This document shows positions 2,684 to 43,684 of a stretch of DNA of 64,000 nucleotides, piece by piece. The stretch's first letter is position 1. Each line of letters starts with the position of its first letter. The notes under the pieces were generated by a model, which was not told the origin of the DNA, did no database searches, and worked only from the letters and a program-made list of their open reading frames with translations. Source of the stretch: Amoebophrya sp. A120 (taxonomy: Eukaryota; Protista; Dinoflagellata); the NCBI GenBank assembly GCA_905178155.1, contig CAJINV010000007.1:4304258-4368257 (forward strand), in the 5' to 3' direction. A program made the position numbers and the translations under genes.

Positions 2684-5600
2684 ATGGTGGTGACCATCAG
2701 TGACAAAGTGGAGGAGCACCCGGTCGACGCCAGAATTGTGGAGCTACAACAGCCTGGCACTACAACGCGCACAACGGCAGGAAGAGGCTCTACAGGTCGA
2801 GGAAATAAAGGAAATCGAAGTTCATCATTAGATAGGACCATTTCGGCGGACGAAGATTCGAGCGGCTTTCACACGAAGAACTTGAGGACAGCGAAAATGA
2901 AGCAATCTACCGCGGCACAAAATAAATGGACATCTTCAACAGACGAGAACAAAAGTAGCCTCACAACTTACGAGATGATGAACACGGGGAAAAATAACGA
3001 CAAACCGGACCATGAAGGAGGTCTTGTCGCACCAGCCGCACATTATAACAACTTCAGCCCTGGTGATGTTAATGGTCAAGAACCGCAAAAAGAAGATGAA
3101 CAGAGCACCTTGCGCCGATTGAGCGAAGCCAACCGCGACATTAAGAGCCAGGCCCGGGGCCTGGAGTACAGCGAGCACAGCACCACGCCGCGGAACCTCC
3201 CACAGGGGGTCTACAAGATCCGCGCCTCCGGCACGCTGGACAACTTCACTCCGCTGCACAGCGAGGAGACCGTCCACACGCGCGCCAAGTACACGGAGTC
3301 GGCCCGGTCCGCCAGCAAAAAGTCGGCCGACGAGGTGGACGCGCAGCGCAACGCGGACATTTTGACGAAGGGCCTCACGTATCAAATGTAAAAATGTCTG
3401 GGTCTGGAAGATTCTGAGACTTGTCATGCATGTTTTGCCTGGGCCATGATGTCTGTGATGCATGCCCTAGCATCACAGATTTTTTGAGGGCTTCGCGATG
3501 CCTATTCCGCATGACAAATGCCCTCTCCGCGTAGCAAGAATTACACTCCCTTTGCTGCTCATGCAATACAGATTTTTTTGGAATCCAAATGCAGCATCAC
3601 AAGTTGCATTCTTCCAGACCCAGACACTTTTACATTTGATATCACGCCGGCGCAGTTGGTCGCCGTTACGGACGGACGGAGCAAGATTTCCGTCGAAGAC
3701 AAGCGGGACGAGACGGAGGAGCGGGTATCAAATGTAAAAATGTCTGGGTCTGGAAGAATGCAACTTGTGATGCTAGCTTTGGATTCTAAAAAAACCTGTA
3801 TTGCATGACCAGCAAGAGGCGCCCAGTTTGTGCTACGCGGGGAGGGCGTTTGTCATGCGGGATAGGCATCAGGAAGGCCTCTCGAAACATGTGATGCTAG
3901 ATCATGCATTACAGACATCCTGAGTCATGCAAAATATGCACGACAAACCTGGTAACCTTCCAGACCCAGACATTTTTACATTTGATAGCGGGCGCCGCTG
4001 TACCACCCCGCGCTCGACACGCCGCCCACCTTCACCCAGTCCCTGGGCTCGGCGGTCACGAACTTTCTGCTGCTCTACATCCTCAACTGCTCCTACGGCA
4101 CGCTGATTTTCATCAACTTCCCCGCCTTGTACTCCTACGGCATCCGCATGGCGTTGGTCACCGGCGGCATCTTCGGCCTGCTGCTCGCGGTCAAGTCGAC
4201 GCGACAGGCCGCGTGCCAGATCGGCGGCGCGGATATCACGCCCGTGACGCTGATCGCGAGCCAAACGCTGCGGCTATACGAAAGGCTGGATTTGGAATTT
4301 GATTCCGACAACGTGATCAAGACCAACGCCTCGTGGACGGAGGCGCAAAGGGCGGCGTACGTGAAGGAGAAGCAGGAGGTGGTTTTCGCCACGGTCTCGT
4401 TTAACGTCGCGACCTCCACGGTCGCGTTTAGCGTCATGTTTCTGCTGATCGGGTACTTCCGCATCGGGAACGTCGCAAATTACATCCCGTCCATCACGTT
4501 CAAGACCTTCCTCACCTGTGTGGGCGTGGAGGTCTGCTACTACGGGTGCCAGCAGTGCCGCTTCGAGGGTAGTCAGTGCGTGATCGCCGCGACGCTGGGC
4601 TTTCTGTTGCACTTATTCACGGTCCGCTTGAAGTTGTATAACGTGGAGATCTTGGTCCCCCTGCTGATCCTGCTCCCCATCGTGACCTTCTACTTTATCG
4701 AGTTTGCCATCCTGCAGACCAGCGACTTGGAGAGTCTGCAGCGGAAAAACTGGGTGTTCGAGAAGCAGCACGAGTCGCAGCCGTTCTACGAGGTGTTTTC
4801 GGACGGGTGGGCAAACTTCGAGAAGGTGGATTTTAAAAATTGGTTCAAGGACCTTCCGGCCAACTACGCCCCCATGCTGCTGATCGTGTGGCTGGACAAC
4901 ATGGTGCAGCTCTCCACCTTCGAGGCCCAAACCCCGGCGACCTTCAACCTGAATCAGGAACTGTTCCACCACGGAGTTTTCAACCTGCCGGTGGCGCTCT
5001 GCGGCGGCGTGGTGGGCTACCAGTTGTTCGAGCACTCGGTGCTGAATTTCGAGCTGACGAACTCCGTCACCGACCGAAAGACCGGGATCATGATGGGCTT
5101 TTCGCTCTTGGTCATGTACTTCGCGGGCACGCAGCTGATGGAGATTTTACCCCGGTTCACGATCGGGCAGTTGCTGTTCTTCTCCGGCTGCGGGATTTTG
5201 GATCAAAACGCGCTGCCCACGATCAAACAGATGTTCAACCTGCAACTGGACGAGGACGAGGTGAACTTGATTGCCGTCGTTGCCGTCTACATCGGCAGCG
5301 ACTTCAATTTGCTGATGGCCATGCTCACGGGCATCCTCCTCGCCACCACCTCCTTCGTTGTGAAGTTTTCCGGGATTCCCGCGGTTCGGTGTATCTCCTC
5401 CGGGATGTACGCGCGGAGCCGGGACTTGCGCAACCCGATCGAGCAGAAGATCATCGCCCATTTGTCCTCGCAGCAGGTGCTGGTGTTGCGGCTGTCGGGC
5501 TACATGTTTTTCGGCTCCATCACGGCGGTGATTGACATGATCCGGCAGATCCTGCACGAGGCAGACGAGGGCGAGACGGAGACCCCGTACACGCACGTCC

Positions 5601-8600
5601 GGTTTCTGGTGCTAGATTTGTCACTCTCTTCGGGCTTCGACGCGTCCGCCGCCCAGAAACTGACCAATTTCATCATGAAAATCGAGATGGGCGAGATCGG
5701 GTTTCATATCGCGAACGACTACGCGTCCAACCGGCTGGACGTGGTGTTTTCCGGCGTGAGCCCAGCACTGGAGCGGTTCATGCGCGAGACCAAAATGGTG
5801 CGGGGGAACGAGGTGTTTCGCGATCTGCGCATGGCGCTGGCGTTTACTGAGGACCAAACCACCGCGTATTTTCTCAAGCAGCAAGAAAAATTCCTCCACG
5901 CGGTGGGGAACGTGATGGACTTTGACGGGAGCGGGGTCGGTTTGACGTCAAAATCTGTTCTTTCCGATGCGATGGAGGAACAACGGAAGAAGCAGGGCCG
6001 GATCAAGATCAAGCTGTACCGGGAACTGGCCCTGGCCAAGCAGAAATTCGATCCGTTCGCGGAAATTTTCCCGGATCTGCCGTCCAGGCTAGGGATGTGG
6101 GACTACTTCAAGCCCGTGAAGTTTAAGCAGGAGGTGGTCATGTTCGCGGCCCAGGTGCACCACCCCTACTTGTACGTGATCATCCACGGCGACGTCGGGC
6201 TTTACACAAATTTGGAGGCGCTGCACAGTTTAAACAAGGACGAGTACGAATCCCTCTCCATCGCGCCGCGCGTGGTCTTGTCTTCCGGGTTTCTGCTGAA
6301 CCCCGGGGCCATTGTCAACTGCGAGAACTCCTCGGTTTCGTCCAATTGCCCCTGGGACTTCGCGGTTACGTTGACAGACGAGGTCTTCTGCTTATCAAAT
6401 GTAAAAGTGTCTGGGTCTAGAAGAGTCATGCTGTTTCTGCATGACACAGAAGGTCTGGCATGGAAGCTCTAGCATCAAAGGTTTCGAGAAGCTTCCGCAA
6501 TGCCGAGCCCGCATGACAAGTCCCCCATTTTGGTGACAGAAAGTGAGCAGCTTTTGCTACCTATGCATGAGAGATTTTTGTGTGTTCCGAAATGCGCATC
6601 ACAGGTTACATCCTTCCAGACCCAGACATTTTTACATTTGATACTGCTACCAGTTAAGCAACGCGGATTTTCAGAAAATGCGCGTCGATCACAAGTACAT
6701 GGCGTTCTCGCTCCTCGCCGCCTGCGCCAGCCAGCAGGGCTACGTGAGCCGCACGCAGCACCAGGAGTTGGCGCTGGAGTACAACTCCTTCAGCACGATC
6801 AAGAAAAAGATCGACGTGGACAGTTTGTTCGGGCGGGGGCAGAGCAACGTGTTTCTCGGGAATTTCTTCAAGCACGGCCGCACCGTCGGCACGGTGCTGG
6901 GGCAGGCGAAGGATAAATTGAAAGGGGGGGAACAGAGTGCCGATGATGGAACAACCAAAGGGGTGGACTACAATGTCGCGAGCCAGATCGCGGAACGGCA
7001 AAGGGTCGAGATCAAAGAGAAGGATAAACTGAGCGATTTGTTCCACGCCGGGCCCGGTGGGGGGCTGGATTTGAAAAAGTTAAAAGAAGCGCTGGGGAAA
7101 ACGGAAGAACAAGATGGAAATCTTGAAGATGCTGCGGTAAAGCACGAGGGATCTGAATCTGCACCTCCTCCCGGAAGCGCAGCAGCAGAAGAGGGTACTA
7201 AAGATCTTCCCAGCGCCGGCGCGACGAGCAAAGACAAAGAGGCAGAAGATGCTGCTGCAGCTCCTGCCCCCGAAATAACCACAGGAGCGCCGACGCCAGC
7301 AGCTTCCTTGGACGTCGGCCCATCGGATGAAAATAATAATAAAGGTCCACTACCAGCTGGGGCGAAGAACAAATTTTTGAGGGCCGTCGTCCGCCAGCAG
7401 TCCTCTACTAAGACAAACACCGAGGGAGAGCACTCCATGCCGCGGTCCGTGCATTTTCCCCGGGGCAGCCGAAGCGCCACGCGGAACCTCTCGGTGGAGT
7501 TGGAGGATATCGGGGACGACTTTGCGCTCGAATTTCTGGATGACGACTACAACGAAGATAGCGGTAAATTGGTCGTGAAACAAGACGATGAGGAGGATGA
7601 CGGAACGCCTTCGAAAAAGTCTGCGAGCACGAAAGGTAGTTTGAAATTCCAGCTGAAGCGCGGTGACACGTGGAAAGCGATATCCCGGTCCAACACCATC
7701 AAGCACCTCTCCCTGGTTCAGGAGGGCCTGGTGGGGCAACTCGCGTCGAACGAGATGGAAAAGCCGGAGAGTCCCTTGCAGGAGTACTACTTCACGGAGC
7801 CGAGTTTGATCCGCGGGGAGCCACCGTTGATAACCCGCTTGATCGAAGAGGTGCGGATCGCCTACTCGTTTGAATCGCTGGGGGCCTACGACGACGATGA
7901 TCTTGCGGGGGCGGACGGCGCTTTCGACACCCAGGTGCAGATCGGGGAAGCACAGAAGGAGAAAGATGAAAAAACGCTGTGCTTTATCGACCAGCAGGAC
8001 CGGAAGAAACGGTGGCGCCGGCAAAAGGACGCGGACGAAGAGCAACGGAAAAGTTCCGCGTCCAGCAATAATTTGTCATCGGGTGAACAAGAAGTACAAC
8101 AGGAGCGGCAGCCCCGCCCGCTGCCGAAGCTGCTGTTGCAGAATCTGGACAGGGCCTTCCGGCGGTTTTCGCGAAAAGTAAGGATGAAGTTTGGCGTTTC
8201 CCGGGTGATCCGAAAAAAGGACGTGGAATCTGCCATGCGGTACGCGGGGATTTTTGTGAAATCCGGCTACGAGGTGAAGTTGGAGGAGAAATTTCTCGGC
8301 CCGCAAACCGGCACGACTTCGGACACGGCCCTGACCGAGAGCACAAACGCCTTTCTACTGCAGCGGCACGAGCTCGCAAAGAAGGAAACGGTGACTGAGG
8401 GCGCCGCGGCGGCCTTGTTCGAAGGGAATAAGACTTCCGAGATGAAGAAAATGACTCAGGTGGAGAATGACAGCGCAACGCAAGCTGCGAAAGCCAAAAA
8501 AAATAACAGCCCTAGTACAACATCTACTGCCGAAGTAGAGCAGCACTCCGAAGGAGCGGCTTACCTTGACCGCGCGGAATTTCTTGCGTTGGGCAAAGCC

Positions 8601-9605
8601 CGCTCCATGTACCCTCTCCCGCGGCAAACCGAAAAGAAGTTGCTCGACATTTTGAACAAAATCGCGAATGACCTGAAAGTCGACTACTTTTCCGAGCGGG
8701 TGTTCGTGCGCGCGATGAAACAGGCCCTGAACCTCCACCTGTCGCCCGCGCTGTTCTCCCGCATGTTGGAAATTTACGACGACGACGGGAACGGCCGCCT
8801 CGAGCCGGAGGAGGTCCTGGGCATCATCAGCAACCTCGCCGCGGTGTACTACCCCCACTACCAGGTGCTCAAAGCGTGGCGGTTGCTTTCCCGGGAGAGC
8901 AGCAGTCCCAGCAAATCGGGTGACTTTTTCACGAAAGCGATCACCTTGGACGAGCTGAGCCACACCCTGAAAGTGTCCAGGGCGGATGCGCGCGAACTCA
9001 TCTGGGCGTCCGCGTTCGAGGAGAAGGACGACGCGCAATTTTTGTTCCCGCAGTTCCTCGCGTTACTCTACCTCGCGCCAAAAAGGATTCAAGTGCTGGG
9101 CGAAGACGTGGTGAATCTAGTCGACACGTTGCATCCCGGGGGGCTGAGCCTAAGTCAGTTGATAGGCGGTGGGGGCCCACATTCGCCCATAGACTCTAGG
9201 CAATGGACAAAGGAAAACTACGGTCCAGGCGCCGGTAGCTCATCTCTACACTCGGATACATTGTTCCCCTCGTCTCTGTCGTTTGCGTCGATCTATGGAA
9301 ATACTAAAGGTGGGTCCTCTGAAATCGCAACCGGGGCTCCTCCTGCGGCAGGTTCTTCGCATCTCGAAGAGGGTGGAACTGGACAGGGACCGGAACGAGA
9401 AGGACAACACGAGCATCTGAAATTTTTTGACGAAGATGGGGATGACTTATCTAGAAGCACTGTGCGGACATACAACTCGGATAGCGACGTAGATGGCAGC
9501 TTGTTGGAGGAAGATGTAGAACGTGATAGCGATGGCGATTTGGAAGACAAGTATCCGTATGATGACGTGTTTAGAGAGTATTTTCCTCCTGTAAGAAGAA
9601 GTTAG
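2684..9605 (+). CDS. SulP/SLC26-family anion transporter with STAS, cNMP-binding-like and C-terminal EF-hand regions (~2043 aa). Exons 2684-3379, 3647-3725, 3993-6392, 6649-9605
   Basis: Removing three inverted-repeat elements plus one 5-bp direct repeat each joins ORFs 2684, 4127 and 6678 in one frame (6132 nt). Multi-TM region with NLNQELFHHGVFN; STAS motifs VLRLSGYMFFGS and FLVLDLSLSSGFDASA; cNMP-like LYVIIHGDV; EF-hand DDDGNGRLEPEE at ~8778-8813. Start codon uncertain. Confidence 0.85.
3380..3641. mobile_element. Introner / MITE-like non-canonical intron IE1 (262 bp)
   Basis: 31-bp TIR TATCAAATGTAAAA(A/G)TGTCTGGGTCTGGAAG with 1 mismatch. Direct repeat TCACG at 3375-3379 and 3642-3646. 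Removal restores the SulP frame. Confidence 0.95.
3726..3987. mobile_element. Introner IE2 (262 bp), same family as IE1 in opposite orientation
   Basis: Same TIR. Direct repeat GCGGG at 3721-3725 and 3988-3992. Interior is the reverse-complement homolog of IE1. Removal restores the frame. Confidence 0.95.
6393..6643. mobile_element. Introner IE3 (251 bp), IE1 family, same orientation as IE1
   Basis: Same TIR. Direct repeat CTGCT at 6388-6392 and 6644-6648. Removal gives ...EVFC-YQLSNADFQKMRVDH, in frame with ORF 6678. Confidence 0.95.
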
Positions 9606-10246: not shown

Positions 10247-13200
10247 ATGACATCGCTTACGCGAGGTGTCGCGCGTCTCGTGTCGAGGAAGACATTTGTT
10301 TTCCGAAATTTTTGTGTCATGATAATTGTGCAAGCCCAAGCCACGTCGTCCAGCACGGTGTTGTCAGATGCAACAGTTCCGACCTCTTCCAAAAGTTTAA
10401 CGTGGATCAATCAGAAATCAGCACAGGCCAACAAAGCAGCGGGTCGACAAAAGAGTAATGATGCCGAACTTTCAGAAAGCAGCGACGTTTTGGAGGCTTT
10501 GCGTCTGTCTTCCATCGACGAGTGGCTGCCCTCCCTGGAACCGGATATCACGGGCCCCCTCGCGGACGAAGGGGGCGAGCCCAAAACGGACTTCGGCGAA
10601 CTCATTGGCGATTTGTTCCCGGAAGGGGGCGAAAAGCCGGAAGTGGAGGTCAGCGAACGGTACAATGAAGTGCGCCGGCGGGCTCTGTTCCCGGTGGTGA
10701 AGCAGTTCTTGCACCATTTCCGGCCAGACACACCGTTTTTGTACAAAGAAAAGGACGTCGTGGACGCGACGACAACTGCTACTGCTGTAGTCGGCGTAGT
10801 TCCAGCATCAAAGGAAGATGGTTCCTCCAACTCAGGACCAGCAACATCAATCATGCGAAGAACACAAAGGGGTGCTACTGCTACAAGTGACGTTCACGCG
10901 GTTGACACCGTTTGCAAGCTTCCGTCAAATGATCCTGCAAATCTGCAGAGCGGTCTGCTAACGAATTTCACCTGCGCGGATAATTTCCATCGCTATAACT
11001 ACACAGAGGAGCTCGATACCGAGGGAATTCCCTACGTGCTCACGAAACTTCTGTCACAAACGCGAGCCTCTTGCTTCGACGTCCTCGCCGCGCTCGAGTA
11101 CTTGATCACGAATTTGTTGCGGTACCAGACGGAAAAGCTCAGGAAGGAGCTCCACATCGACGTGCAGGCGGTTTCGCGGAACAGTCAGCGCGCGTTCCAG
11201 GACAACACACTGCTGAACGAGTACAACGAGGTGGCCGGGATGGAACTGTTTTACTTCTACGGCAGCGGCATGATCCAACTGTTGGAGGAGTATTTGAGAC
11301 TGCTCTTATCGACGATCATGCTCCAGCCCCACTGTTTCAACGCGGAGACACGACTGCAGTTGTGCAAACTCCTCACCACCGATTTTGCGGAGAACGTGCG
11401 GAACCGCTGGCGAAAGATCGAGTTCACGATCACGTGGAAGAATTTGTACCACTTGACCGATGCCTTCCGCCTCCGGACGCACGTCACCGAGATGCTGGAC
11501 GTGGGAATCTACAACGTGGTGGATTTGTTCCACGAAATCCAGCTCTCGGTGCTGCGGAAGATTTTGGATGACAACTCAAAGCGAACCGCATATGGAACTG
11601 TCAGGATCGAAATTGACAAAGTCGAAATTTTTGTGATGCATAAAATGCATGACGCGAGATACGTGTGTTGCAGAGCAGGCAAGTGAGGCCGATTGTAAGC
11701 CTGTTTGGGGCTATAGCTCGAGCTGCTAAAGCAGCATGAGAGAATCAGTCTGCTTTGCCTAAACAGCATTACAAAATGGATTTAGGCACCACCAGAATTT
11801 GTGATGCGCCACTTAGAAACTGGCTTCGAACTGGAATCCGTTTTATGCATGACAAATCATTTCGATTTTGTCAATTTCGATTCTGACACTTTCATACCGC
11901 ACTGCTGAACAAGCCGGGACAGAACACGGAGGCGGAGAAAATCGGCCACGACTGGACGACGGTGGAGAAGTCGGGCGGGTTTGTGGATTTTCTCTACCTG
12001 TACCGAATATGAATTGCAAATATGTCTGGGTCTGGAGAAGTGCAAGTTTGTCATGCTTGTCTGGCATGACTCGAGAATCTGTGTAGCATAGGCACGAAAC
12101 GGCCCTCTTACCTGTCACGCAAAAACGCATGCGGAATACGTAACACATGGCAGCCAAGAAATTTGTCATGCATAGTTGCGTATTGCAGTGCGTCTATCGT
12201 TGTTCACTCTTAGCATTACAAGATTGCGTTTTTGTGTAATTACAAGGTTCCAGAGGACCCAGAAATATTTGCAATGCATACCGAACAAAATTTGACCACT
12301 GGAGCATCGACAAGTCGTTGATCCGGGGCATCATCCGCATGTTCGCGAACGAGGCGAGCAACGTCGAATCGGTGGTGGATCTCGGCGCCGGCGGGGGAAA
12401 GTACTCGGAACTGTTGGAGCTCGGCTTCCCGACGGTGTTTGCCGTCGACGCTTCGCCGCACGCGTTCGAAACCACGAAGCAGCGGGTGCACTACGCGGAC
12501 TTGAGTAGACGGATGGTGATAAAAAAGGAGGACGCGACGGGCAATAATTCCAGAGAGCAGAACGGTGAGTCTGAAGCGACGAGTGGCACCGCAGGGCACC
12601 AAAACAGTTTTTCAGTGGTCTTTGAAGACGGCGGCGTCGAGGAGGGGGAAGACGCGAACGAAGGAAATCGAGAGGCTCATCAAGAACAAGGTGTGATTAC
12701 GACCACAGACACCAACACTCTTTCCTCTGCCTATCGATTTGACCTTGCCATCTGCATCGAGGTTGCCGAACACATCGCGAAGGAGCACGAGAACACTTTG
12801 ATCCAGAACCTGAACAGGGTCTCAAACCGGTTCCTCGTGCTTTCTTGGTCGAACGACCGAGAAAACGACTACCACGTGAACCCGTTGCCGCAAGACGAGG
12901 TGGTCGCCATGATGGAAGCCAGAACTGAGTTCCGAATAGACAGGGAAAAGAGTGAGAAGCTGAAAAAAGCGGCGAGTATTGCCTGGATCAAGGACAATGT
13001 GTTGGTTTTTGAAAAAGTACATGGAAATGGATTCTCCTTTTCGACGTCGACAAGGCGGATTGAAAGGATGTTGTTGAGGGAGCATCCAGTTCTTCTGTCG
13101 GCTGCTTGCTTTGCTAGTGGTGGGGTCTTCAGAATATGTGTCGTTTTGCTTTGTTATTGTTTTTTGAATTTTTGCGTTTCTTTGGTCGTCGTGGCTGACT

Positions 13201-20577: not shown

Positions 20578-20579
20578 TT

Positions 20580-20619
<40 letters not shown>

Positions 20620-23980: not shown

Positions 23981-24068
23981 CTGTCCAGTATGGAGTACGA
24001 GTGGAACAGGCTGACAATGGCGGCTGTCCAGTATGGAGTGGAACAGTGCCGTCTGTCCAGTATGGAGT
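23981..24068. repeat. Three exact copies of CTGTCCAGTATGGAGT
   Basis: Copies start at 23981, 24024 and 24053, just upstream of the AKR gene. Confidence 0.9.
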
Positions 24069-31159: not shown

Positions 31160-34117
31160 CTAGCGCACCAAGTGCCTCAAGAACGTCATGGCCGGTGGGT
31201 TCATACTGCCCGTGGAGTCCATTCCCGGGATCACGGCCGGAGCGGGGGCGGCCGGCGCTCCCATCGGCGCGGTGGGGTCCAACGTGCTGCCAGCCATGGT
31301 CGGCGGCGGCGGCGGGGCCACTGTGGCCGCGCTCGGGTCACCCATGGGCACGGTGGGCGTCAGGGAGGACCCGGTTGGCGGGGGCGGCGGCATCATGGTC
31401 GCATTGGTCATTGGCGGTTGGTCCTCCGGCATGGGCGGCATCGTAGTTCCGTTCATGGCCCCCGCCGCGGCCTCGTTGGCCATGCCCTCGATGTCGGTGG
31501 GGCCCGGGGGCGGCGGTGGCGGCATGGTGGCGTTGCCCGCCGGCATGGTCATGGTGGCGTTGGACTCCTCGTGGTCCGACAGGTGGATTCCCGCCGCGGC
31601 AAACTGGTCGTGGGTGATGCCCGCCTGCATGGCCATGTCGTGCACCGACGTGCCGTTCACGCCAAGCGGCACCATGTGCCCGTCGCTGGCCCCGGCCGCG
31701 TGGTCGATGGGCGGGGTTGGTTCCACAAAGTGCTCGTGGCCGCAGATCTGGTAGTGGTGGGGGAGAATAGAAGAGCCGATGTTTTATTTCTGCAGTACTG
31801 AATGAAAGACAAGTAAGATGACAGACTAAGAGCTACATTTGTGATATTGCATGACAAGAATGACACCAAGCTATCGTATACCATATCGCAGTGCGAGTGG
31901 CAGTCTCCGTCGTCACAGGCAGCGTGGCACTGCGCGCACTCGTCCTGGGCCGGATTGGCAATGTGGCCGCCGCAGGAATCGACATCACAGCGCATCATGC
32001 ACGCGTGGGGGATGACCGCCTCCTTCTTGGCCTCGCACACCTGACAGCCGGAAAAGCCCTCCTTCTTATCGGCGTCGCAGAGCTGGTGGCAGGTGCCGTC
32101 GTCGTAACTGGATTTTCATTTTTTTGCTTGTCATGCATGAGCTACTTGTACTTCTTACAATCAGCAATGCAGGTGCTCAGGCGTTTTCTCATGCGAGGAA
32201 CATATTCGAAAGTAAAGTCCGTACTTACCCCATGATGTCTTCACACCCATCGTGGCAGGCGTGGCAGCTGGAGCACTCGCGACTGCCTTCTGCAGCCATC
32301 AGCATTGGGTACGCCTGGTCGTAGCAATTGTTGTGGCACATAGAGCACGTATCCGCGACGGTTTCATTGGGGTAGTGCATGGCGGACAGCAGTCCCATTT
32401 CCGCCTCGCACTGCATCACGAAGTCCTCCCGCCCGATGCCCGCCGTGGTGTTCAGTTGTTCCTGCATGTGCATCGGAAGCATGTGCTTCAACTGCGCGCA
32501 CTTCGGGCTGGTGGCGATCATCGCCCCGGAAAGAACCGGCTCCTGCGTCGCGGCGATGTGGGCATCGCCGACGGCGGCGTACCAGCAGTCCTCCCAGTAG
32601 CGAAAGCAGTCGTCCGCCGGATCGGCCGGGATGTGCTCGCCCTGCGTCATGCACCCCTCGTGGTGGGTCTCGTGGTGCATCCGCCGTGCGTCCTCCATGT
32701 GCAGGACGGTCTGGGTTGGAGTTGTTTAATTGAATAATATCATCGACGTGCTAGGTGTTTTGTCCTGAAACAAATATGGTGCCACAGCGACACAATTTCA
32801 ATTGGAGTTGCGTCACCAGATGAAATGGACTCTATCTCTTCTTCCATTCATTCTCAGACACGCGTGCGAAGAGAGTTCACATCTTTCTTGGTGGTTTTTT
32901 CTCACATAGATGAGGCAAGAAGCACCACAGCAGCGAACTTCGTAAACAAAGCAAGCCGCCATGGCACGTCGAGAAACCACAAGTCTATCAACATCTCCTC
33001 CGTTGTGTCATCATGGTGTTACTCAGGTGTGAACGATACGTAGTAAAGAGTTCCAATCAGCGCCCTAACTTCTAGGTTGTATTGCTATAACCATGAAGCA
33101 GACTCAGATGGATCCCCTTCTTTATGTCATCATGTTGTAGTATACTTTTCTCTGTAATTTAAATTTTGCTGTCATGATGCCCTGAACACGACGCCCCCGA
33201 CGCTACAAAATTAAAACTGAGAGTGAAAGCCAGCACAGTCGAAATTTCTCCTACCTGTTCGTACATTTCGCACCCCTGCAAGTAGTCCTCCCGAAACAGC
33301 TGCGGCGGGATCTGTTCCTTCATCAGGTGGCCGGCTTCGAGCAAGTCCATGATCCGTGTGCACTGCGTGGTCGCGGTTTCAAACGTGACGAATTCTCCCA
33401 TGTGCGGGTCGTACTCTGGCCCCATGCTGTGGCACATGGACCACCAGGCCTGGCAGTTCACCGTCGGGGCGCGGGGCTGCGGGGGCTCCTGCCAGTGGAA
33501 AATGACGGAGGAGCAGCCCCACTTGTACTCTTCCGCGGTCCTGTATCCACAAAAAAGAGCAGCCATTATTCCCATCCGTCTTTCGCACGACACATAACAC
33601 AGGCGTTGTTTCTTGTTGTGTTCTTGTTGCATGCTTTGCATGGCAAATTGGGTCATGGGGAAAATGGGTCTTTTTTCGCGCATACCATGCCGTGCTCTTG
33701 CGAAACCATCTCCGGATCGAACAATCCCTCCTTGATCAGCGCCGAGATCCGGGGGCATTGCAATGCGGTCTGCGCGGTGATGTGGCGGTCCGGCACGAAG
33801 GCCGGCTGCTCCGTGTGCTCGCACTCTTCCCAGAAAGTTTCGCAGTAGGCCTCGGCGACCTCCGGGGACTGCGGGGGCGGAATGGCGTACAATCCGGTCG
33901 TGTAGTTGTAGCCGAGCACGACCTGCATCGCCTTCTCAGCGTCCCAGTCCTCTTTTCTGGAGAATTTCCTTGTGCGCAGGGCGGAGGTTTTCGTAATGGA
34001 GAGGGCTGTCGTGGTGGCTTGAGTTTTTGCATTGTTGGCGGCGAGTTTGATGGCAGAAGTGGAGAGTGACTGGTGGTCGAAGAGGACCAAAGACGTAAGT
34101 GCACGCGAGAGCGACAT
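31160..34117 (-). CDS. Probable secreted Cys/His/Met-rich repeat protein (~670 aa). Exons 34117-33686, 33539-33255, 32710-32229, 32107-31882, 31747-31160
   Basis: Three GT-AG introns and one introner join four ORF pieces in frame (2013 nt). Three CxxxWxxC...C...E(E/D)(Y/F)xxxC repeats, CxxCH clusters, Pro/Met/Ala-rich tail. Confidence 0.75.
33544..33684. mobile_element. Degenerate introner IE8 (141 bp)
   Basis: Imperfect TIR TAT(C/G)C(A/G)C..AAAAAAGA..CCATT. Imperfect direct repeat CATGG/CAGGA on the gene strand. Element+5 nt removal gives GM-TAEEYKWGC, matching the protein's internal repeat. Confidence 0.75.
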
Positions 34118-34519
34118 CTTGATGGGAGAGTTGTGGCGACTGATTTTCACACGTATACGAAGTAGAGAACCGACGCCGACAGCTGTAGGCACGCTTGCGC
34201 TGCTGCGGAACTGCAGGCTCCTCTACGCCCTGGTAGCAGGACGACACTCGCTTCGTTCTCCTGCGTGATAGGGCGTGGCAGGGACGACGCTAAACAAAGT
34301 ACATAGTTAGAGTAAGCAAGGGCGTTTTTTCATCGGTAAGAACAAGTGGCGCTTATTGTTATTCTAAGCGCAATAAGCTCAAGCACAACCGAAGAAAACC
34401 AGGGCACTGGTATTGAACTTCGGAAAGCAGAAGCACCACCACGAAAACTTGAAATAAAGCAAAAACGGCGTATCTCGTCGAGCGGAACACAACACACACG
34501 AAAAGAAATAAAGGAAAAC

Positions 34520-35960
34520 ACGCCATGGCCACCAGAGACGGACCGTCGGCGACAGAGGCTCGCTGCCGGTCGATGTGGTGCGAGGGAGTATGCCACCCTC
34601 CCGGGCGAGCCACGCCTCCTTTTCGCTGGTTGGTGTCGCGAATACCACTGCGGCACACACACACACACATAACAAGCAGGACGTCCTGGAGGCAGACTCG
34701 CGCCTGCTCCATCCGGGCGGGGGGTATGGCGGTGGCAATGCAAAGAAAGGGGCCCGCCCCCGGGCAGAGCGAACGGGGACGGGCGGCTGCCAGGCCCAAA
34801 GGAAGCTTCGCCCTAGGCGCCGGCGGGCGCGCCATACAAAAGAGGAGCAGGGCGGGGCCGTTGCCAAGGGCCGGGCGCGCCTCCGCTCTGCTATTGACAT
34901 ACTTCACTACCAGCCGGCCTGCACGGCTTTGGCGGCCGACCAATGCAAGGAGCCGGAGGAGCCCACGGACGCAAGCACGCAGGAGGCCCAAGGGCCGGCG
35001 GGGCGGGGCCCCGCCCGGCCGAGTGAGAGATACGGCGCCGGCAGGGAGCCCGGGGCCGGGGGGCCGCGCCAGTCGGGCCGGCCCGCTAGCCAGCAGGCCC
35101 CGAGGGGGCCCGGCGCGCGCCACCAATATTCGAAGAGCGCGGGGGGGGGGGCGCGGCGTTTTGGGCATCGGGTCGCCCGTTCCGGGATGTAAATAACATC
35201 GGAAGTACATAGATGACGGCCCTGGCCCCCGGCGCCACCGCGATCTATGATTTTCACGCTGGCGCGGGGCGCCACGCGCCCGCGCGCCGGCAACAAACGC
35301 CGGCCGGGCGGCCCGGGCGCTTTCGGCGCGCCCTACCGCCCCCCCGGCCCCGGGGGGCGGGGGGGGCAAGAAAAGCAAGGGCGCGCGGCCCCGGCCGGGG
35401 GGGCCGGCCCGGCAGACAGCCCGTCGGCCTTCGCGCCGCCCCTCCACACCCGGGTAGCGAAATGGGCGGGCGCGCGCCGGGGCGCGCGAGGCCTTCGGGG
35501 CAGCGCGGGCTACGTCAAGGGCCCGCGGCGGGCAAATCCGGCCGGGCCGGTCCCGCCAGGTATGGGGCCCGCGAACCGGATGGCGCAGACAAAACACCGC
35601 AAGCCCGGCAGTAGCACCTTCAGCGGGGCCATTCATTGGGTCGCCCGAAAGGCGTGGCGTAGCCTTCGCACTTTCTTCCCGCGCCCTGGGAAAGGCGCCG
35701 GCCGACGCGTGGGGCTGGAACCTGCCCCAGCAGCATCGCGCTAGAGCCCGCGCAGCTTTTGGCTTCCACCCAAAAAAGGCGGCCCCACATGCTAGGCAGA
35801 TACCCGGGCGGCCCGCTGATGTGGAGTGGGCCCGCTGCTTCGCGTCTGTGGCCCCCCCGGCGGTACGCAGCGGCGCCCTGCCGGGGCGCCGGGATTCGCC
35901 ACAGAATCAGGCTCGTACATTCCTCCCCGCTTTTCGTCGTCCATGTATCATCAGACACTC
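34520..35960. other. Very GC-rich intergenic island with G/C runs and a short (CA)n tract
   Basis: Visible composition shift. The overlapping G/A/R/P-rich ORFs in all frames show no recognisable domain. Confidence 0.7.
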
Positions 35961-36492
35961 CGCCACCGCTTCGGTGCGGCGACTCGTGCCCGCCGCTGTC
36001 CCTTGATCGAAGAACTTTGAAAATGTTTAACTACTGACAAGCCCATCGCTGGTTCCCCCTCAGCGCGAGCAATGCCGGCGCAGTTTTGTATTCCAACTGC
36101 TACTACAACTACAACGTGGCTTAGTTAACCTTAGCATCATTGCTGCGCCAGAACACAGATGATCAACGGGCACTTGAGTTTGACCACTAGTGTGAACGTT
36201 CACGGTAACTAGTACATGCCGATCCGACATTATCGGCCACGCACCTCTTCGATCTGGAGTAGGTATGTGCTCATTCTTCATAGTACTTTTGGTTTTGATG
36301 TCTTTAGCTTTCTAGGCGTACGGAAAAAACAATTACTCTGATGAGCAGGGCGTGCTCTCCACTGTCATCTATGCCCAATAGGGCTACAAAATGGAGCCCT
36401 GCCCTGACAGCAGCGATCATTATCGAGCACAACCCAGCTGCAGGAGCACCAGCACCGCACACACTCAGAGCAAGCACACCAATTGCGCTCGT

Positions 36493-37079
36493 CTACAAGG
36501 AGCTACACGGCAATCCGCTGTACAGACTCGCCAGCTTTCCTTCGCCACCACACTTCTTCTTCGGATCGCCAGCGCACTTGTTCGAGCATTGCGCCGGGTT
36601 CACAATTTTCCCGATCTCCACAGTCGCGTAACAAACACAATCGTCCTTCTGCATCGTGAAGTAGGGGTAGATCTCACCTGTTGTAAATGTGTTTATTTTG
36701 ATTTACACATTTTTCACATCATCATCAACATGTACATGCTCATGGAGATAACGTTCCCTACACCAGTGCGTAGTTATTCACTCACATCACAATCACCGAC
36801 GTGCATACCTTATGATATGCAGGGCAAAAAAAAATCGTAACCCATGTCGTGCAGCTACGTACCTTGCGACACGCAGTTTTTGGCGCAATCTTCGGGCGTT
36901 TCAGCCCGGTTCCCGGGGAACGAAGGCGTCCCCTCCTCGATCTCGACACAAGCGTAAGGCAGTCCCACGGCCGTGGTCGTGGCGTTGTAGGAGCGCAGCT
37001 GGAATTGCAGGCCCGTTGCCAGCGTTGCGAAGATATTTGCGGTGAGGAGCAACCTGCGAAACGGAGAACAACGCTCCAT
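36493..37079 (-). CDS. Small secreted WSC-domain protein (~133 aa). Exons 37079-36863, 36677-36493
   Basis: Signal-like N-terminus. One GT-AG intron (36678-36862). TPEDCAKNCVSQG-EIYPYFTMQKDDCVC...QCSNKCAGDPKKKCGG...SLY fits the WSC Cys pattern. Second exon is absent from the ORF track; an alternative ATG lies at 37106. Confidence 0.85.
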
Positions 37080-37618
37080 TCTGCTTCCGACGCCCCTGCT
37101 CACCATCTTTGCTGCTGCGGGCGCTCCGGCACTCTTGTGTGCCACGGATTCTTTAAATAAGACAAATGGAAATCATCATGATCGCGCGTCGCACGACGCA
37201 TACGCAGTTTCGGATAGTAAATTCGTGTTTTTGTATGTGGATCATCGTCAAAAGTGGTTGCTCGGGACAATATAGCATGCTTCTTGTTTAGATCTTACTT
37301 CGTGATCGTGACCTGGAGCTTTAGCCTTCGACTTCGTAGGACTAGATCCTGTTCTTTCACGCAGAAAGTTTTTCGTTGGCCTGAATCCTTTTCGAAATCG
37401 AGGAACATCAACACAGCAGTTCGTACCACAGCCAAATCTAAGGCGTGCTACTTTACGTGCGCCGCCACCCTCTCAGAGCTCGCGCAGCCTCAAACGACAA
37501 CAAAACGGCAGGGCAAGACCGATTTTTGTCCAAAACGGCAAAAGTGTATAAGTGTTTTCAATTTCGGTTTCCGGACAATGCCGAAAGCAAAGGACATCTT
37601 CAACATCCACCACGAGCG

Positions 37619-40600
37619 TCACAGCTTTGAGGCCGCTGTATTGTTACACGGGTACAATTCCTTGATTTTCAAGTCGTTCTCCTCCGAAACGGAATTCGGC
37701 ATGGTCACCGCGAAGTCCCGATTGGCTTTCATTTCCCGATCCACCGCAAACTCGGCATTTGGGTTCCGGGCCCAGGACCGACGGGTGATGCCGTTGTAGA
37801 CGTCCCAATGCAGCATGCGCTTCAGCTTGGTGGACGCCTCTGAAGAGCCGTCGAGAAGAAGACCGAAGCCACCGTTCATGACCTGGTGATGTTGTGCTGG
37901 AGAGGTTGACATAATCCTAATCCCTCCCCTATGATTTGAACACATATGATGTAGGAGCTAGTGGTCACGTCTAAAGAAAGAACAAAGACCGAGAAGTCCA
38001 GTCACGACTACGCTTAAAAAGCAAGTACTTACCTCGCCCCACCCGACCCCTCCCCCGTTGTGCAGCGACACCCAGGTCGCGCCGCGGAAGGAGTCCCCGA
38101 TGCAGTTTTGCACTGCCATGTCTGCGCAGAAGCTGCTGCCGTCGTAGATGTTCGATGTTTCGCGGTACGGCGAATCCGTCCCGGAAACGTCGTGGTGATC
38201 CCGACCGAGGACCACCGGACCTGACAGTTTTTTACTTTTTATCGCCTGGTTAAACGCCTCGGCGATCTTCATGCGCCCCTCGGCGTCCGCGTAGAGAATC
38301 CTCGCCTGGGAACCGACGACCAGCTTGTTCGCTCGGGCGCCCTTGATCCAGGTAATGTTGTCCCGGAGCTGCTGCTGGATTTCGACCTGATAGAATTTTG
38401 TGCAGAAATTTAAATTGACCCGTGGTCATGTGGTTGGGGGGAGGAGACGTAGAAAAGAGCTGTACCTCACGAGCAGTTTGAACCAGCTGGCGTGGCTGCA
38501 AAAAATAAGTTGCGACTACACTTACTCTGATTCAATAAGTACCGGCGACGTCTTCGCGACTTGCTCGAGCGCCTCGCAGGCGATCGCGTCGGTCGTCGCC
38601 AAATCCTCCTCCTTCCCACTGCAGCAGACCCACCGAAATGGCCCGAACCCGAAGTCGAAGCAGATCGGGCCCATGATGTCTTCGACGTAGCTCGGGTAGC
38701 GGAACTTCGTGTCGTCGTTCTTGTCGATGATGTCGGCACCGGCGCGCTTGCACTGCAGCAGAAACGCGTTGCCGTAGTCAAAAAAGTACATCTGTCTCTC
38801 CTCCGTCATGACGTTGATGGCCGCCGCGTGTCGTACTAACGTTTTCTCGACCAGTTGCTTGAACCTCGCCGGATCTTTTTGCATGATGCTCCGGGACTCG
38901 TCGAGAGGTAAATCCGCGGGGTAGTACCCGCCAGCGAAGGGGATGTGGAGGGACGATTGGTCGCTTCCGAGATCGACATGGACCTGATGTGGGTTTCACT
39001 ACGATGCAATTCCCTTTACTTATTCCTATGGACCAAACTCCTTAAGAACTCCCCTTAAGACTTCCCCTTAAGAAACTCCTTAAAAAAGGGGGGGGGCGCG
39101 GAATCGATGACACCATGGGGGTTCATTTTTGCGCCGAGGGTATGCTGCGTTTTCTTATGTGCGTTGGCGCAAACTTTTGGCAACGAGAAAATCGGGCCCA
39201 TAGCATGGGGATTGAGGGCGAAAAGTTTTAAGGCGATTTCTTTAAGGGGGAATCTTTAAGGGGCATCTTTAAGGGCATTCTTAAGGGGATCTTTAAGGGG
39301 GCTTTTAAGGGGACGCTTAAGGGGGGCCCATAGAGCAGCCCAAGCGATTGCGCCAGGGGAAAGGGCGCAAAAACCTATCTACTGGGGGGTCCTGCGTGCC
39401 ATGAGCAGAACGGCGGCCAGCGACAACCAACACGCGCAAGGCAGCCCGCCGGCAGGCTACCTAGCGTGCGGCCGCGCGCCGGCAGGCTAGCGGGGACGGC
39501 CGACAGGCTAGCGGAGGCAGCCGGCAGAGTAGCGAGGGCGGCTGGCAGCGTAGCGGGTGCAGCCGGGACGGAGGGTAGCGGGGGCGGCCGGCCGGGTAGT
39601 GGGGGCAGCCGGCCGGGTAGCGGGGGCAGCTGGCCGGGTAGCGGGGGCGGCCGGCAGGGTAGCGGGGGCAGCCAGCCGGGTAGCGGGGGCAGCCGGCAGG
39701 GTTGGTAGCGAGGGCAGCCGGCAGGGTAGCGGGGGCGGCCGGAAGGGTAGCGGGGGCGGGTTGGCAGCCGGCAGAGTAGCGGGGGCAGCCGGCAGAGTAG
39801 CGGGGGCAGGCAGCCGGCAGAGCAGCGCGGACAGCCGGCAAGCTAGCGAAGGCAGCCGGAAGGGTAACGGGGGCGGCAGGCGGGGTAGCGGGGCCCGCCG
39901 GAAGGGTAGCGGGGGCAACCGGCAGGGCAGCCGGAAGGGTAGTGGGGGCAGCGGGGCGGCATGGTAGCGGGGGCAGCCGCCAGGGTAGCGGGGGCCGGCG
40001 GGGTAGCGGGGGCGGCCGGCCGGGTAGCGGGGGCAGCCGGCAGGGTAGCGGGGGCAACCGGCAGAGTAGCGGGGACAGCCGGCAGGGTAGCGGGGGCAGC
40101 CGGCAGGGTAGCGGGGGCAGCCGGCAGGGTAGCGGGGGCAGCCGGCAGGCTCGCTACCTGTCTGAGGACGGCACGGGCGGGGCAAGCAGCAGCCGGCACG
40201 CCGCCAGCGGGCGGCAAGATGCCAAAGAGGTAGCGCGGGCGGGGCAGGCAGCTGGCGCGGGGTTGTCGAAAGCCGGCGCGCGAACGCGCCCAGCTTCCAA
40301 ACTGACATCGGGCCCCCTCTCCCGGTCTCCTTGCAGTTTATTCAGTCACCGATCTACCGGTCGCAACCGACAATCCCAAGCCCAGGCGAGCCCAGCAGGG
40401 CTCGCCCCGAGGCTTGTTCATCTTATTTTCAAAATCAAATGTAAGTAGCATTGCGATTGCAGGATGTTTTTCTGACATTAAATGACCTCTTCTCACTCTG
40501 CTTAAAAACATTACTACCTTTTCCCGCACCAAAAACTCCCACAATTCCACAATGTTTCCCAGAAACGCGAAGGACTTCGCCTTTTTCTCCACATCCTGGG

Positions 40601-41675
40601 CATACTTCACCTTCTTCAGCAACACCCCCAAATCCGATTCGATCTCGTCCACCCACCCCTGCGAATGCCGCTTTTTCGCCGCAACGGAGTCGATTTCCGC
40701 GGTAATGGAGATCATGTGCGCGATGTTTGCCGCTTTCGGCTGGGCGCCCGACATGCCACCGAGGCCGGCGGTGATGAAAAGTAGGGGCTTGTTCTCCGGG
40801 TTGAAGGCTTTTCCTCGTTTCTGCTTCAGAATCCTCGCGGCGTTCAATAATGTGATCGTGGTCCCGTGCACAATTCCCTGCGGCCCGATGTACATGTAGC
40901 TCCCCGCCGTCATTTGGCCGTACTGGGAAACCCCCAAGGCGTTCATCCTTTCGTAGTCGTCGGGGGTCGATTTCGAAGGGATGACCATGCCGTTCGTCAC
41001 AATCACCCGCGGCGCGTCTTTCGAGCTGGGGAACAGCCCGTGCGGGTGCCCGCTGTACATGGCGAGCGTCTGTTCATCCGACATCGTCGCGAGGTACTTC
41101 ATAGTCAGCAAGTACTGGGCCCAGTTTTGAAAAACCGCACCATTCCCACCGTACGTGATCAACTCGTAGGGATGTTGCGCAACTTTTGGATCGAGGTTAT
41201 TTTGGATCATCAGCATGATCCCCTTCGCGTGCAGTGATTTCCCCGGGTACTGCTCGATCGGCCGCGCGAACATGTCGTAGTGCGGCATGAAACGGTACAT
41301 GTAGATCCGCCCGTAGGTTTCCAACTCTGTCGCGAATTCCTCGGTTAAGTCTTTGTGAAATCTCTGCGGGAAGTACCGCAAAGCGTTCTTCAAGGCGAGC
41401 TGCTTCTCGCGGTTCGTCAAAATCTGCTTCCTTTTCGGTGCGCGGGAGACCGGTTTTGTCGTGAGTCTCTGCGGTGGGGTTGGGAGCTCGTCGAGGGGGA
41501 TTCCGGTCAGAATCTGCTGCTGAAATAATTCGATGGAGTCCGTGGTCTGCTTCGCGATTGAGGGAGTACTTGATGTTTGCGCTGCTGGGTCTGTGATATT
41601 TTTCCCTGGTTTAGCATAGGGATGCGCCCGTGGAGACGGGTTTGTGACAGACGAAGAGGTGGCCGAGCCCGTCAT
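37619..41675 (-). CDS. UROC1: Urocanate hydratase (urocanase, ~738 aa). Exons 41675-40518, 38983-38543, 38386-38033, 37882-37619
   Basis: NNLDPKVAQHPYELITYGGNG, YGQMTAGSYMYIGPQGIVHGT, GLGGMSGAQP, FGFGPFRW, GRDHHDVSGTDSPYRETSN, SLHNGGGVGWG. Three GT-AG introns. Confidence 0.96.
39038..39327. repeat. Inverted arrays of CCTTAA / TTAAGG(GG) units inside urocanase intron 1
   Basis: Four CCTTAA units at 39038-39085 face about eight TTAAGG units at ~39228-39327. Confidence 0.8.
39475..40150. repeat. 21-bp G-rich minisatellite (GGCAGGGTAGCGGGGGCAGCC)n inside urocanase intron 1
   Basis: About 30 degenerate tandem units; the 7-aa periodicity appears in all ORF-track translations of the region. Confidence 0.92.
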
Positions 41676-42469
41676 GGTTGAGCTTGATGATGAAATTTTG
41701 TAAAGAGAAGGGAAACAAAAGGAGCTACTCAAGTACTTACACAACTTGGAAATTGACCAAGTGCGGGGAAGCGTTACAAGGGCTCAAAGTCGCATGGTTG
41801 GTAAAGCAGGCACAATAGAAACAGACAATTGCTCTGCTTCGGTCAGTAGGTGAAAGTAAACTTCTTATTTACCGCAAACTATACATTCCGACGAGGGCTC
41901 GTGCTGAAAAATAAAAGAATCCCGGTGGACCTGGATGTCAAACTGCCGTCTGGAGAATGGCATGCAGAACTAGTAGCTTTGAAAGCATGCGGCATTTGCA
42001 CACAATCGGTACACGAGATTACTTGTAAAATTCATGTTCATGTTGTCTCACTCATAACTTAAACCACGTTTGTTTCCACTCTTTGTTTCGCTCCAAACAA
42101 TGCCATTGTTTAAAAGGGTGGATATTAAACAAAGACATCACAAAAACAGGACACAGTGCATCTCGGGGAGGTTGACGTTGAGATGAGTACACTACTTACG
42201 CGTGTTGAGTTGTGCAGTTCTTACTCGCCCGTTGTTTCGTCAATCCACCTACCAACATGTTCGTGTTCTTGGACCCGTGTGTATTGAGAATGCGAACGGT
42301 TTTTGGAGAAGCTTTTTTCTATACTACACTGGTGCTTCAGGACGCGACCGCCACAGGGGGTCTCGGATAGCGGTACAACTACGACGGAGAATGTTGCCTA
42401 GCCAGCCTTGAAAAAGTGTTGTAAATTTGTCATGCAGATTCACCTACACACGAATTGCATAGACGGCAT

Positions 42470-43684
42470 CTACAACTCATCATCGTCGTCCAGGTCGTCG
42501 TGCTCCACGTCCACCATGCTCTTTCCCAGATTATCCAAGTGATGAAACAAGATATCGTTTCTGCAATGCTACCCCAGCCGTTTAACTACGCATGACAAAG
42601 TCATGCACAACTAGCATTGCAGAAACGATTATCCTTGTCACATCTCATAGAACATCTCACCCAACAAGCTGTTGCGCTTGATGACCCAGGCCTTCTTTTC
42701 CGTCGTCATGTTGCCCAGCGCCAACTTTTTCAACCGGTTCCACCTTTTGTCGTTTTGGTTTTTGGACTAGGACAATGCATGACAGAATGTAACAAGGTAT
42801 CCATTCTTGATTCAAGTTCAACGTGCGAAATTGATGTGTCATGCAATCCCAACAATGAATACTCCTTATCCTGGTCGGTCTTCGTTTTCGGTTGCCACTT
42901 CGCAATAAAGGTCTTCTCCTTGTCGCTGCACTCCTTTTGCTCCTTAACGCTGCACTGCGAGGCCAATTTCTCTTTGACGAATTTCGTCAACGAGTCGCCG
43001 TCGCGACCTGAAAAGAGTAATGTTCGAAAAAATGCAGACAAGTATTTCCGCATGACATGCACATTGAATAAAAAACCGTCTGCGCATCATATCACATTCT
43101 TGTGCATGAATTAAGTGTTTCACTTTTTCGACGTCCTTATCCCTTGACGTCAATTTTACCTCCTTGATAATCCTGCAGTGTGACCCCAGACTCCGCGTTG
43201 TAGTACTTGAGGGTCGGGTACCCGCGTACGTCAAACCGCTGGCAAACGGAATCTTCCACGGTGCAATCGACATCGGCGATCAAAACGCTCGGGTCGTTTT
43301 TGAAATCATCGGCAAGCTTGTCCCACGCCGGACGGAGGGCTTTGCAGTGCCCACACCAGGGCGCGAAAAATTTGATCTGATAGATTGGTAAATTGAAATT
43401 GAGTTTCAGTTTTGTGTACTCGGAAGGTAAAGAACGTAGACCTAGATGAGAGCGCGTCTTCGCACTAATTTCGGCTATACACAGAAACGTCTACACGGCT
43501 GTCGCTGTGATTAGCGGCATGCATGACAGAAAAAGCACAAAATTCATACGAGAGCTCCTTTCCCGGATTTCATCGCTTCTTTTTCAAAATTTGCTTGCGT
43601 CAAATGAGCGACGCTGTCTGCAGATGCGAGGGACGCAAGGGCAGCAGAGGCTGCGACGACGAGCTTTTTCGTAGCGGAAACCAT
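42470..43684 (-). CDS. Small ER protein disulfide isomerase-like protein with one thioredoxin domain (~214 aa). Exons 43684-43550, 43376-43160, 43007-42863, 42743-42661, 42534-42470
   Basis: Signal peptide, IKFFAPWCGHCK, VRGYPTLKYY, helical C-domain, C-terminal DDEL. Three GT-AG introns and one non-canonical intron. Confidence 0.9.
42535..42660 (-). mobile_element. Degenerate introner-like non-canonical intron IE9 (GT...GG, 126 bp)
   Basis: TTGG direct repeat at both junctions. Perfect internal 18-bp inverted repeat ATCGTTTCTGCAATGCTA / TAGCATTGCAGAAACGAT. Of the junctions I tested, only this one reaches the DDEL-stop frame. Confidence 0.75.

Follow-up and report, generated by a model that had tools for sequence, protein, structure and literature searches.

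A putative DNA-binding motif shared by introners and a minority of GT-AG introns in Amoebophrya sp. A120

Introners of the dinoflagellate Amoebophrya sp. A120 are elements with terminal inverted repeats (TIRs) that leave the transcript without GT-AG ends, and ordinary GT-AG introns occur beside them. A 64-kb stretch of this genome (contig CAJINV010000007.1, positions 4,304,258 to 4,368,257; hereafter the window, with coordinates counted from its first base) raises the question of why one short word, GCAT(G/C)ACA, recurs in both intron classes. The original prediction offered two answers, namely a transposase or DNA-binding site left in canonical introns that descend from introners, or a general intron-marking signal. 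Our analysis, which started from sequence, indicates that the motif is likely the putative site of one protein on double-stranded DNA, arranged in helically spaced arrays in introners, and that host selection likely maintains single or paired near-perfect copies in a minority of GT-AG introns, clustered by gene. Descent of these GT-AG sites from introners is suggested.

Enrichment of the motif in two intron classes

The 8-mer GCAT(G/C)ACA had 29 matches in the window, counting both strands, against 4.28 expected (standard deviation 2.13, maximum 12, in 100 dinucleotide shuffles). Nineteen of these lay in seven TIR elements, one in the decayed element at 42528-42650, and six in five of the 13 RNA-supported GT-AG introns (2,310 nucleotides [nt]; among the joints listed), while three (928, 42428, and 44265) stayed unassigned. 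The coordinates reported earlier for introners and GT-AG introns were exact in 11 of 11 cases, and both orientations occurred as described. The remark that long coding regions held almost none also agreed with the count (0 in 42,605 coding bases of the window), but a depletion was not established, because only about two matches were expected there. The 8-mer itself proved to be real but merely the core of a wider motif of about 12 bp, approximately (T/A)GCA(T/A)(G/C/T)A(C/G)A(A/G)(A/G)T, as described by a matrix learned from introners only. The relevant features of the window are as follows, with the strand named where one applies.

3380-3641: IE1, TAT…ATA introner with a 5-bp direct repeat and six sites 42, 74, 90, 129, 183, and 214 nt from its left end; 8-mers at 3422, 3454, 3470, 3509, and 3594
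3726-3987: IE2, inverted copy of the IE1 family with six matrix sites; 8-mers at 3766, 3851, and 3890
6393-6643: IE3, IE1 TIR with a different interior and five sites in a single direction; 8-mers at 6439, 6511, and 6596
11591-11896: IE4, unrelated TIR family with five sites, of which the two outermost stand 41 and 42 nt inside the ends; 8-mers at 11632, 11800, and 11847
12008-12280: IE5, four internal sites; 8-mers at 12049 and 12164
25211-25353: IE6, short element with a single site 41 nt from its right end (25305); its removal restores an open reading frame (ORF)
25489-25634: IE7, 146-nt family with sites at 34, 69, and 96; 8-mers at 25523 and 25585
29614-29779, minus strand: GT-AG intron of an Hsp70 gene with one T-variant site (29735); RNA joint
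31748-31881, minus strand: GT-AG intron of 134 nt with one site 25 nt past the donor (31849); RNA joint
32108-32228, minus strand: GT-AG intron of 121 nt with the 8-mer at 32129; the matrix adds weaker sites at 32164 and 32187; RNA joint
33540-33685, minus strand: decayed introner removed as an intron with GT…GG or GG…AG ends; RNA joint; TIR match 11/22; one 17-bit variant site 40 nt in (33638)
42428-42435: best-scoring site of the window (21 bits), just past the stop codon of a PDI-like gene
42528-42650, minus strand: IE9, non-canonical intron with an RNA joint, decayed TIR tips, and a strong inner hairpin (z -7.7); site at 42590, 53 nt from its start
42744-42862, minus strand: GT-AG intron of 119 nt in a thioredoxin/PDI-like gene with two opposed sites (42777, 42837); RNA joint
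43008-43159, minus strand: GT-AG intron of 152 nt with one site (43050); RNA joint
43377-43549, minus strand: GT-AG intron of 173 nt with one site 21 nt past the donor (43521); RNA joint

The remaining three Hsp70 introns were without a motif site. The 8-mer at 44265 lies downstream of a minus-strand GTAAGT at 44307 and may sit in an intron of an untranslated region.

The RNA evidence came from contigs X1 and X4 of one sample, placed on 24600-44500, whose status as RNA was guessed, though they skip introns. Of the 20 joints found, the 15 listed mark 13 introns of the GT-AG type and two irregular ones; all 15 belong to genes on the minus strand, and none is for IE6. A second data set was obtained by scanning metagenome contigs with the IE1 terminal repeat, which yielded 136 loci, 133 of them used (855 kb, or 632 kb after overlap masking). 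These loci were selected for carrying one TIR and are therefore biased to introner-rich DNA; all counts refer to the window plus the 632 kb. Loci and window have element families in common, 67-79% identical over 300 nt, but share no single-copy DNA, and we infer that the loci come from the same or a close species. A TIR finder returned 417 elements, 410 in the loci and 7 in the window, and none in 272,631 nt of block-shuffled DNA. The elements formed 42 interior-sequence clusters, 11 of them with three or more copies (3-187 copies); 28 were singletons, which suggests an incomplete family library, with families not yet seen accounting for about 7% of copies. A gene-finding hidden Markov model that gave motif matches no weight either way was applied to the 70 loci that were at least 2 kb long and had sufficient unique DNA. 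Once retrained on the loci, the model recovered all 13 RNA-supported GT-AG introns of the window at their exact ends among 31 predictions, a recovery that is not fully independent, as the first seeds were taken from the window. A filter kept 84 GT-AG introns. Thirteen of them resembled introners and were removed, some being certainly non-canonical introns that had been mis-called; the remaining 71 comprise 56 from the loci and 15 from the window.

In the loci, the 8-mer density was 9.8/kb in introners (1,006 in 103 kb, 410 elements), 1.35/kb in the 56 predicted GT-AG introns without introner likeness (14 in 10,336 nt), and 0.117/kb in intergenic cores (10 in 85,257 nt), so that the GT-AG introns stood 11.5-fold above intergenic DNA (P = 2e-8). 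Equality with composition-matched intergenic DNA had been named as what would refute the original prediction. GC-matched intergenic cores of the second set contained only 6 matches in 42,900 nt (P = 1e-6), so equality was not seen, and the link between the two intron classes thus holds. Long intergenic runs were at the chance level (0.116/kb), short gaps within same-strand coding DNA had 0.96/kb, and coding DNA of the loci had 0.13/kb, with many of these matches in mislabelled element remnants. The 71 GT-AG introns contained 20 8-mers, where an order-4 model of these sequences predicts 4.2, and GCATGACA was the first-ranked 8-mer found in them de novo (16 in 12 introns, 0.9 expected). The introner-trained matrix gave 18.9 sites/kb in introners and 39 sites in the 71 GT-AG introns, compared with about 5.5 in shuffles; it was at chance in intergenic cores (37 versus 29) and in coding cores (33 versus 36).

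Arrangement and constraint of the sites

Consensus lines of introner subfamilies carried 4-6 sites, the outermost mostly 32-33 or 40-45 nt from the ends. Same-direction spacings peaked at 31-33 nt (6-11 clusters each), with lesser peaks at 18, 39, 42, 52-53, and 63-64 nt, and opposed pairs peaked at 15-16 and 47-49 nt or at 17 and 34-35 nt. A period of 10.5 nt was significant (P = 4e-8) and stayed so without the 30-33 peak (P = 1e-3). In three subfamilies whose strong sites all point in one direction, the members lying in exons were 20 sense and 16 antisense. Because such one-direction subfamilies occur both ways in exons, the motif in introners is likely a site on double-stranded DNA and not a strand-specific RNA signal. 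The part of the original prediction that called it a DNA-binding site is thus supported by orientation independence and helical spacing.

The motif core was also conserved. Variants shared among copies affected 1.3% of six motif core columns and 9.0% of other interior columns, and private changes at the core were at 0.52 of expectation, similar to the TIRs. In 77 TIR-damaged copies, private core changes were still about half the internal rate (0.48). Introners give no sign that splicing needs the core, because it is at least as well preserved in copies that lie outside coding DNA as in exonic ones. The motif was rejected as an insertion target, with only 7 sites in 281 element flanks (0.24/kb). 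Those flanks (281 elements from loci and window, oriented) show a separate feature, distinct from the GCAT motif: on a single side of the target repeat, position -13 is T in 78% of cases and position -11 is G in 64%. Median lengths of introner clusters were 150, 206-222, 238, 258-262, 280, and 307-322 nt, and 252-nt subfamilies were also present. In run X5, summed contig depth over 3336-4002, 6004-6670, and 11340-12673 reached 1e4 to 3e5, compared with about 45 for single-copy DNA; this depth reflects very many element copies genome-wide, though it is not a copy number.

Among GT-AG introns, a matrix site was present in 30 of 71. The motif is therefore not a general intron mark, as the second answer of the original prediction had it: although it does occur in ordinary introns, most are without it (8 of 13 in the window by the 8-mer, 41 of 71 overall by the matrix), and the sites cluster by gene. 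Four gene models had sites in 3/3 introns and several had 0/3 or 0/4 (P = 0.006); chi-square and concordance tests over 17 multi-intron gene models gave P values of 0.001-0.006, in a test picked after the table was seen and on models that may fuse neighbours, as L077 does. A cruder test counting both-positive pairs over all 71 introns was negative (P = 0.26). Site presence did not track nearby introner density (P = 0.73). Matrix sites were distributed 24:15 between strands (P = 0.2), and the exact 8-mer leaned to UGU(C/G)AUGC on the pre-mRNA (15:5, P = 0.04). Nearness to splice sites was marginal (26 of 39 sites versus 19.5, P = 0.03), and polarity towards intron ends was not significant (P = 0.75). 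Five of 10 site pairs in GT-AG introns stood at introner spacing, with 0.7 expected (P = 2e-4). Introns of 135 nt or shorter (14 of 71) had 9.6 sites/kb and 7 of the 8 multi-site cases; this cut-off was post hoc, and the corrected P values were 0.0005 by length and 0.012 per intron. Donors read GTAT in 37 of the 71 introns, which had a T-rich 5' part and an A/C-rich stretch before AG, with no polypyrimidine tract.

Relic, retained site, or host signal

The sites could be neutral relics, that is, transposase sites left in introns descended from, or once struck by, introners and without host function. This reading draws on the 13 of 84 predicted GT-AG introns that are introner-like, several with eroded ends, on the introner spacing of the pairs, on the density in short introns, on the incomplete family library, and on non-exonic introner copies, which keep the motif as well as exonic ones. 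The mismatch spectrum argues against it. The GT-AG introns had 23 perfect sites against a background of 0.7-2.6, but words with one mismatch at the five invariant positions were at background (25 versus 15-27), which gives a damaged/intact ratio of about 0-0.5. Simulated relics too old for BLAST had 1.8-5 damaged sites per intact site and fewer than 1 site/kb. Most of the one-mismatch excess fell on letters that introners tolerate, namely G at position 6 (12 versus 2.0) and A at position 3 (6 versus 2.2). The sites in GT-AG introns are therefore either very young or kept by selection. Great youth is disfavoured because family likeness is missing: in site-bearing GT-AG introns, exact-register match was at background and the best nhmmer score was 11 bits, a negative that covers only the 71 of 84 introns chosen to lack clear introner likeness. 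Only 5 of the 71 matched anything else in 0.7 Mb, and all of these matches were 40 nt or shorter. Further, the site density needs about 25% decay, a level at which simulated TIR arms stay visible (z 4.0), and no such arms were seen. We regard neutral relics as quite unlikely, and the earlier idea that the motif was simply left behind fits poorly for want of a halo of damaged sites.

The explanation that we favour, tentatively and at somewhat less than an even chance, is that one protein binds the motif on DNA and docks the mobilising machinery, that old introners bring the motif into the GT-AG class, and that the host keeps it there. The 4-6 introner sites would act like subterminal repeats that dock a mobilising protein. 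Some old introners would lose their ends and gain GT-AG ends, and their sites would thereby enter the canonical class, where the same protein, transposase-derived or a host DNA-binding factor, may still bind them. The bound protein would aid intron recognition or processing during transcription, most of all in short introns, and we propose that sites are retained after mobility is lost because the same protein still helps the intron. In an extended and unlikely form, an introner DNA-binding code would have turned into a host intron signal: one protein would bind introners and many GT-AG introns and recruit or license a spliceosome without U1. Introners would then be spliced through many copies of the code and become ordinary introns by shedding their ends and keeping their sites.

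Several decayed elements bear on the step from introner to ordinary intron. The RNA-supported elements at 33540-33685 and 42528-42650 each keep a strong site. In the former, a decayed TAT…ATA element, the cuts fall one base ahead of the element and four past it (or two and three), which puts it midway towards canonical ends. Three predicted GT-AG introns without RNA support (L055:5111-5250, L013:1731-1890, and L072:12302-12859) have a four-site core of the IE7 family, with the TIRs gone. Direct conversion via insertion at NNAG|G was rejected for the 71 introns, of which one had ATA at -7..-5.

A number of results weigh against the favoured explanation. In the site-bearing GT-AG introns, TIRs have left no trace (arm z 0.10; 1 of 30 above 2), and neither has a target duplication (no NNAG|G repeat in 30). 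Weak partner sites were absent from them (0 of 184 positions), and their sites had no helical phase relative to the splice sites (R 0.04), so descent from introners is not established for them. In addition, splice-site scores were equal in the 71 introns with or without a site, and 58 of the 71 are predictions without RNA support (13 have it). In introners, a 16-nt period also fits the spacings (P = 2e-6), which are not independent. Core constraint was weak and not significant (ratio 0.75) in the 16 copies with at least two target-repeat mismatches, which are a poor age clock, and private core changes were 0.98% in non-coding copies (n = 30) compared with 2.25% in exonic ones (n = 177). The mismatch spectrum is a better test than the missing ends, because TIRs could disappear more quickly than by neutral decay where new splice ends are selected for.

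Host selection on a DNA site is common to the favoured explanation and to a further one, in which an older factor of the host, acting in transcription or on chromatin (an AP2-type TGCAT binder, for example), has sites in introns of particular genes. Introners would have co-opted and multiplied this site, and the GT-AG sites would never have been transposon DNA. This is a serious possibility, if a doubtful one. Clustering by predicted gene, independence of nearby introner density, and the lack of TIR or repeat remnants are all as such a factor would have them, and apicomplexan AP2 domains bind TGCAT/TGCATGCA (PMC4117751, as far as its accessible text goes). Against it, intergenic DNA, the usual place for such factors, is at the chance level, the invariant end of the motif is ACA/AGA and not GCA, the GT-AG pairs keep introner spacing, and the first, cruder clustering test was negative. 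An action at the RNA level, as a splicing enhancer, a branch-point-like signal, or a hairpin pairing partner, would account for enrichment restricted to introns and for the strand lean of the exact 8-mer. In the fold predicted for 42744-42862, its two sites do pair with each other, the G variant is almost a palindrome, and U1 snRNA was not detected in A120 (PMC7789003, accessible text). Nevertheless, one-direction introner families lie in exons both ways, matrix sites show no significant strand preference, the folds of two further introns with a site are no stronger than those of shuffles (z 0.67 and 1.21), distances to the acceptor are spread rather than fixed, and helical spacing suits DNA; we consider this reading improbable. 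The branch point as a general role was rejected on the strand ratio (24:15) and the varied acceptor distances. An origin of the motif as a side effect of composition, or of CpG decay in non-coding DNA rich in TG/CA, to which the richness of introns in TGCA and CATG and the raised CpG transitions in introner families (9.0% versus 5.4%) would point, is very improbable and already largely refuted by the order-4 model and the chance level in GC-matched intergenic DNA. Furthermore, C>T did not prevail among private changes (1.6%, against 1.8% for T>C), and the motif itself is conserved.

Near-perfect retention in GT-AG introns that have no TIR would mean that the putative binding is important for the host as well as for the transposon. 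The 12-bp motif can be used as a pull-down bait because it is common to unrelated families, and it could serve as a sequence tag for counting introner-derived ordinary introns genome-wide.

Other observations in the window concern non-coding DNA. A likely 1.5-kb GT-AG intron of a urocanase gene (38984-40517, minus strand) has no motif site and no joint among those listed; within it lie inverted repeats rich in CTTAAG (39035-39325) and a tandem array of high GC content (about 39420-40150). A 60-90-nt repeat adjoins (TTTC)n runs at 19526-19601, 20590-20681, and 62224-62284 and also occurs in several loci; it may be a retroelement tail. The region 34560-35900, between two minus-strand genes, is GC-rich (to 74%), with open frames on both strands and almost no likely-RNA cover.

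Comparison with known systems

The window elements match the published introners of Amoebophrya A120 (PMC7789003, Farhat et al. 2021; PMC12130899, Gozashti et al. 2025) in inverted repeats (IRs), direct repeats (DRs), families, and non-GT-AG removal, to the extent that the accessible parts of these papers describe them. The A120 introners of PMC7789003 have IRs that begin TAT and run into As, direct repeats of 3-5 nt, and many families. Here, TIRs of the window and loci start with TAT followed by about seven bases and then As, and an exact 5-bp border repeat was present in 303 of 417 elements. Non-GT-AG removal was supported by likely-RNA contigs of one sample for 42528-42650, 33540-33685, IE4, and IE5; in one such contig, 11584 is joined to 12279 via 105 nt, which fits the exit of IE4 and IE5, each with one 5-bp repeat. 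For IE1-3, IE6, and IE7, we infer removal from restored ORFs, as long ORFs are restored across IE1-3, IE4-5, and IE6-7. Excision of IE1 with one repeat restores ORF 2573-9602, a sulfate-permease/STAS gene without likely-RNA cover. According to the accessible text of PMC7789003, 15% of A120 canonical introns show IR and DR organisation, whereas the site-bearing GT-AG introns here have the motif without IR or DR. That text also reports that no transposase was found and leaves open how tens of thousands of non-GT-AG introns are removed, what mobilises them, and whether they mature into ordinary introns.

A shared internal introner motif was not found in the main and supplement text of PMC7789003 as available, where 'TGCA' occurs 0 times in the main text and 'GCAT' 0 times in the supplement text; its figures S19-S25 may show the motif. 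The 8-mer was absent from the 12 supplementary files of PMC12130899, out of 14, that were searched. In a full-text literature search, no paper paired GCATGACA with 'intron', and none reported the motif by title or abstract start. What is new here is the proposed selective retention in GT-AG introns (71 introns, 13 RNA-supported), and the introner motif is unpublished within the literature searched.

Non-canonical introns of Fritillaria borealis and euglenids (PMC11282704) likewise bear TIRs, are of likely origin from miniature inverted-repeat transposable elements, and lie beside older GT-AG introns; the accessible text of that paper mentions no shared internal DNA motif bridging both classes. 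The ApiAP2 elements TGCAT/TGCATGCA of the related alveolates Cryptosporidium, Plasmodium, and Toxoplasma (PMC4117751; bioRxiv 10.64898/2026.10.29.762658; both in their accessible parts) resemble the motif in the GCAT core, the preferred preceding T, and the freedom of orientation. They are upstream promoter elements, whereas the motif here ends in ACA/AGA, is concentrated in introns, and lies at the chance level between genes (0.116-0.117/kb intergenic), without the upstream-of-gene enrichment expected of an ApiAP2 element. Relative to the TGCAT/TGCATGCA consensus, T precedes GCAT in 49% of sites, and the final A is invariant with C/G before it.

The closest parallel in arrangement is with hAT subterminal repeats, such as those bound by the BED domain in Hermes, where, in the part of PMC10368747 available, short repeats in both orientations lie inside the TIRs and phasing is crucial. 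The introners here likewise have several short repeats in both orientations and fixed phase inside their TIRs. Pfam models found no transposase among the 41 exon pieces scanned, and no autonomous element was sought; the TIR pattern had 0 matches in viral contigs. We do not claim hAT membership, because no transposase came to light and the duplication is 5 bp, in contrast to the 8-bp target site of Hermes. The Hermes repeat is also shorter, at 4 bp compared with about 12 bp for the motif here. Unlike in Hermes, as far as that source describes it, one motif here spans unrelated TIR families and is retained in introns that have no TIR.

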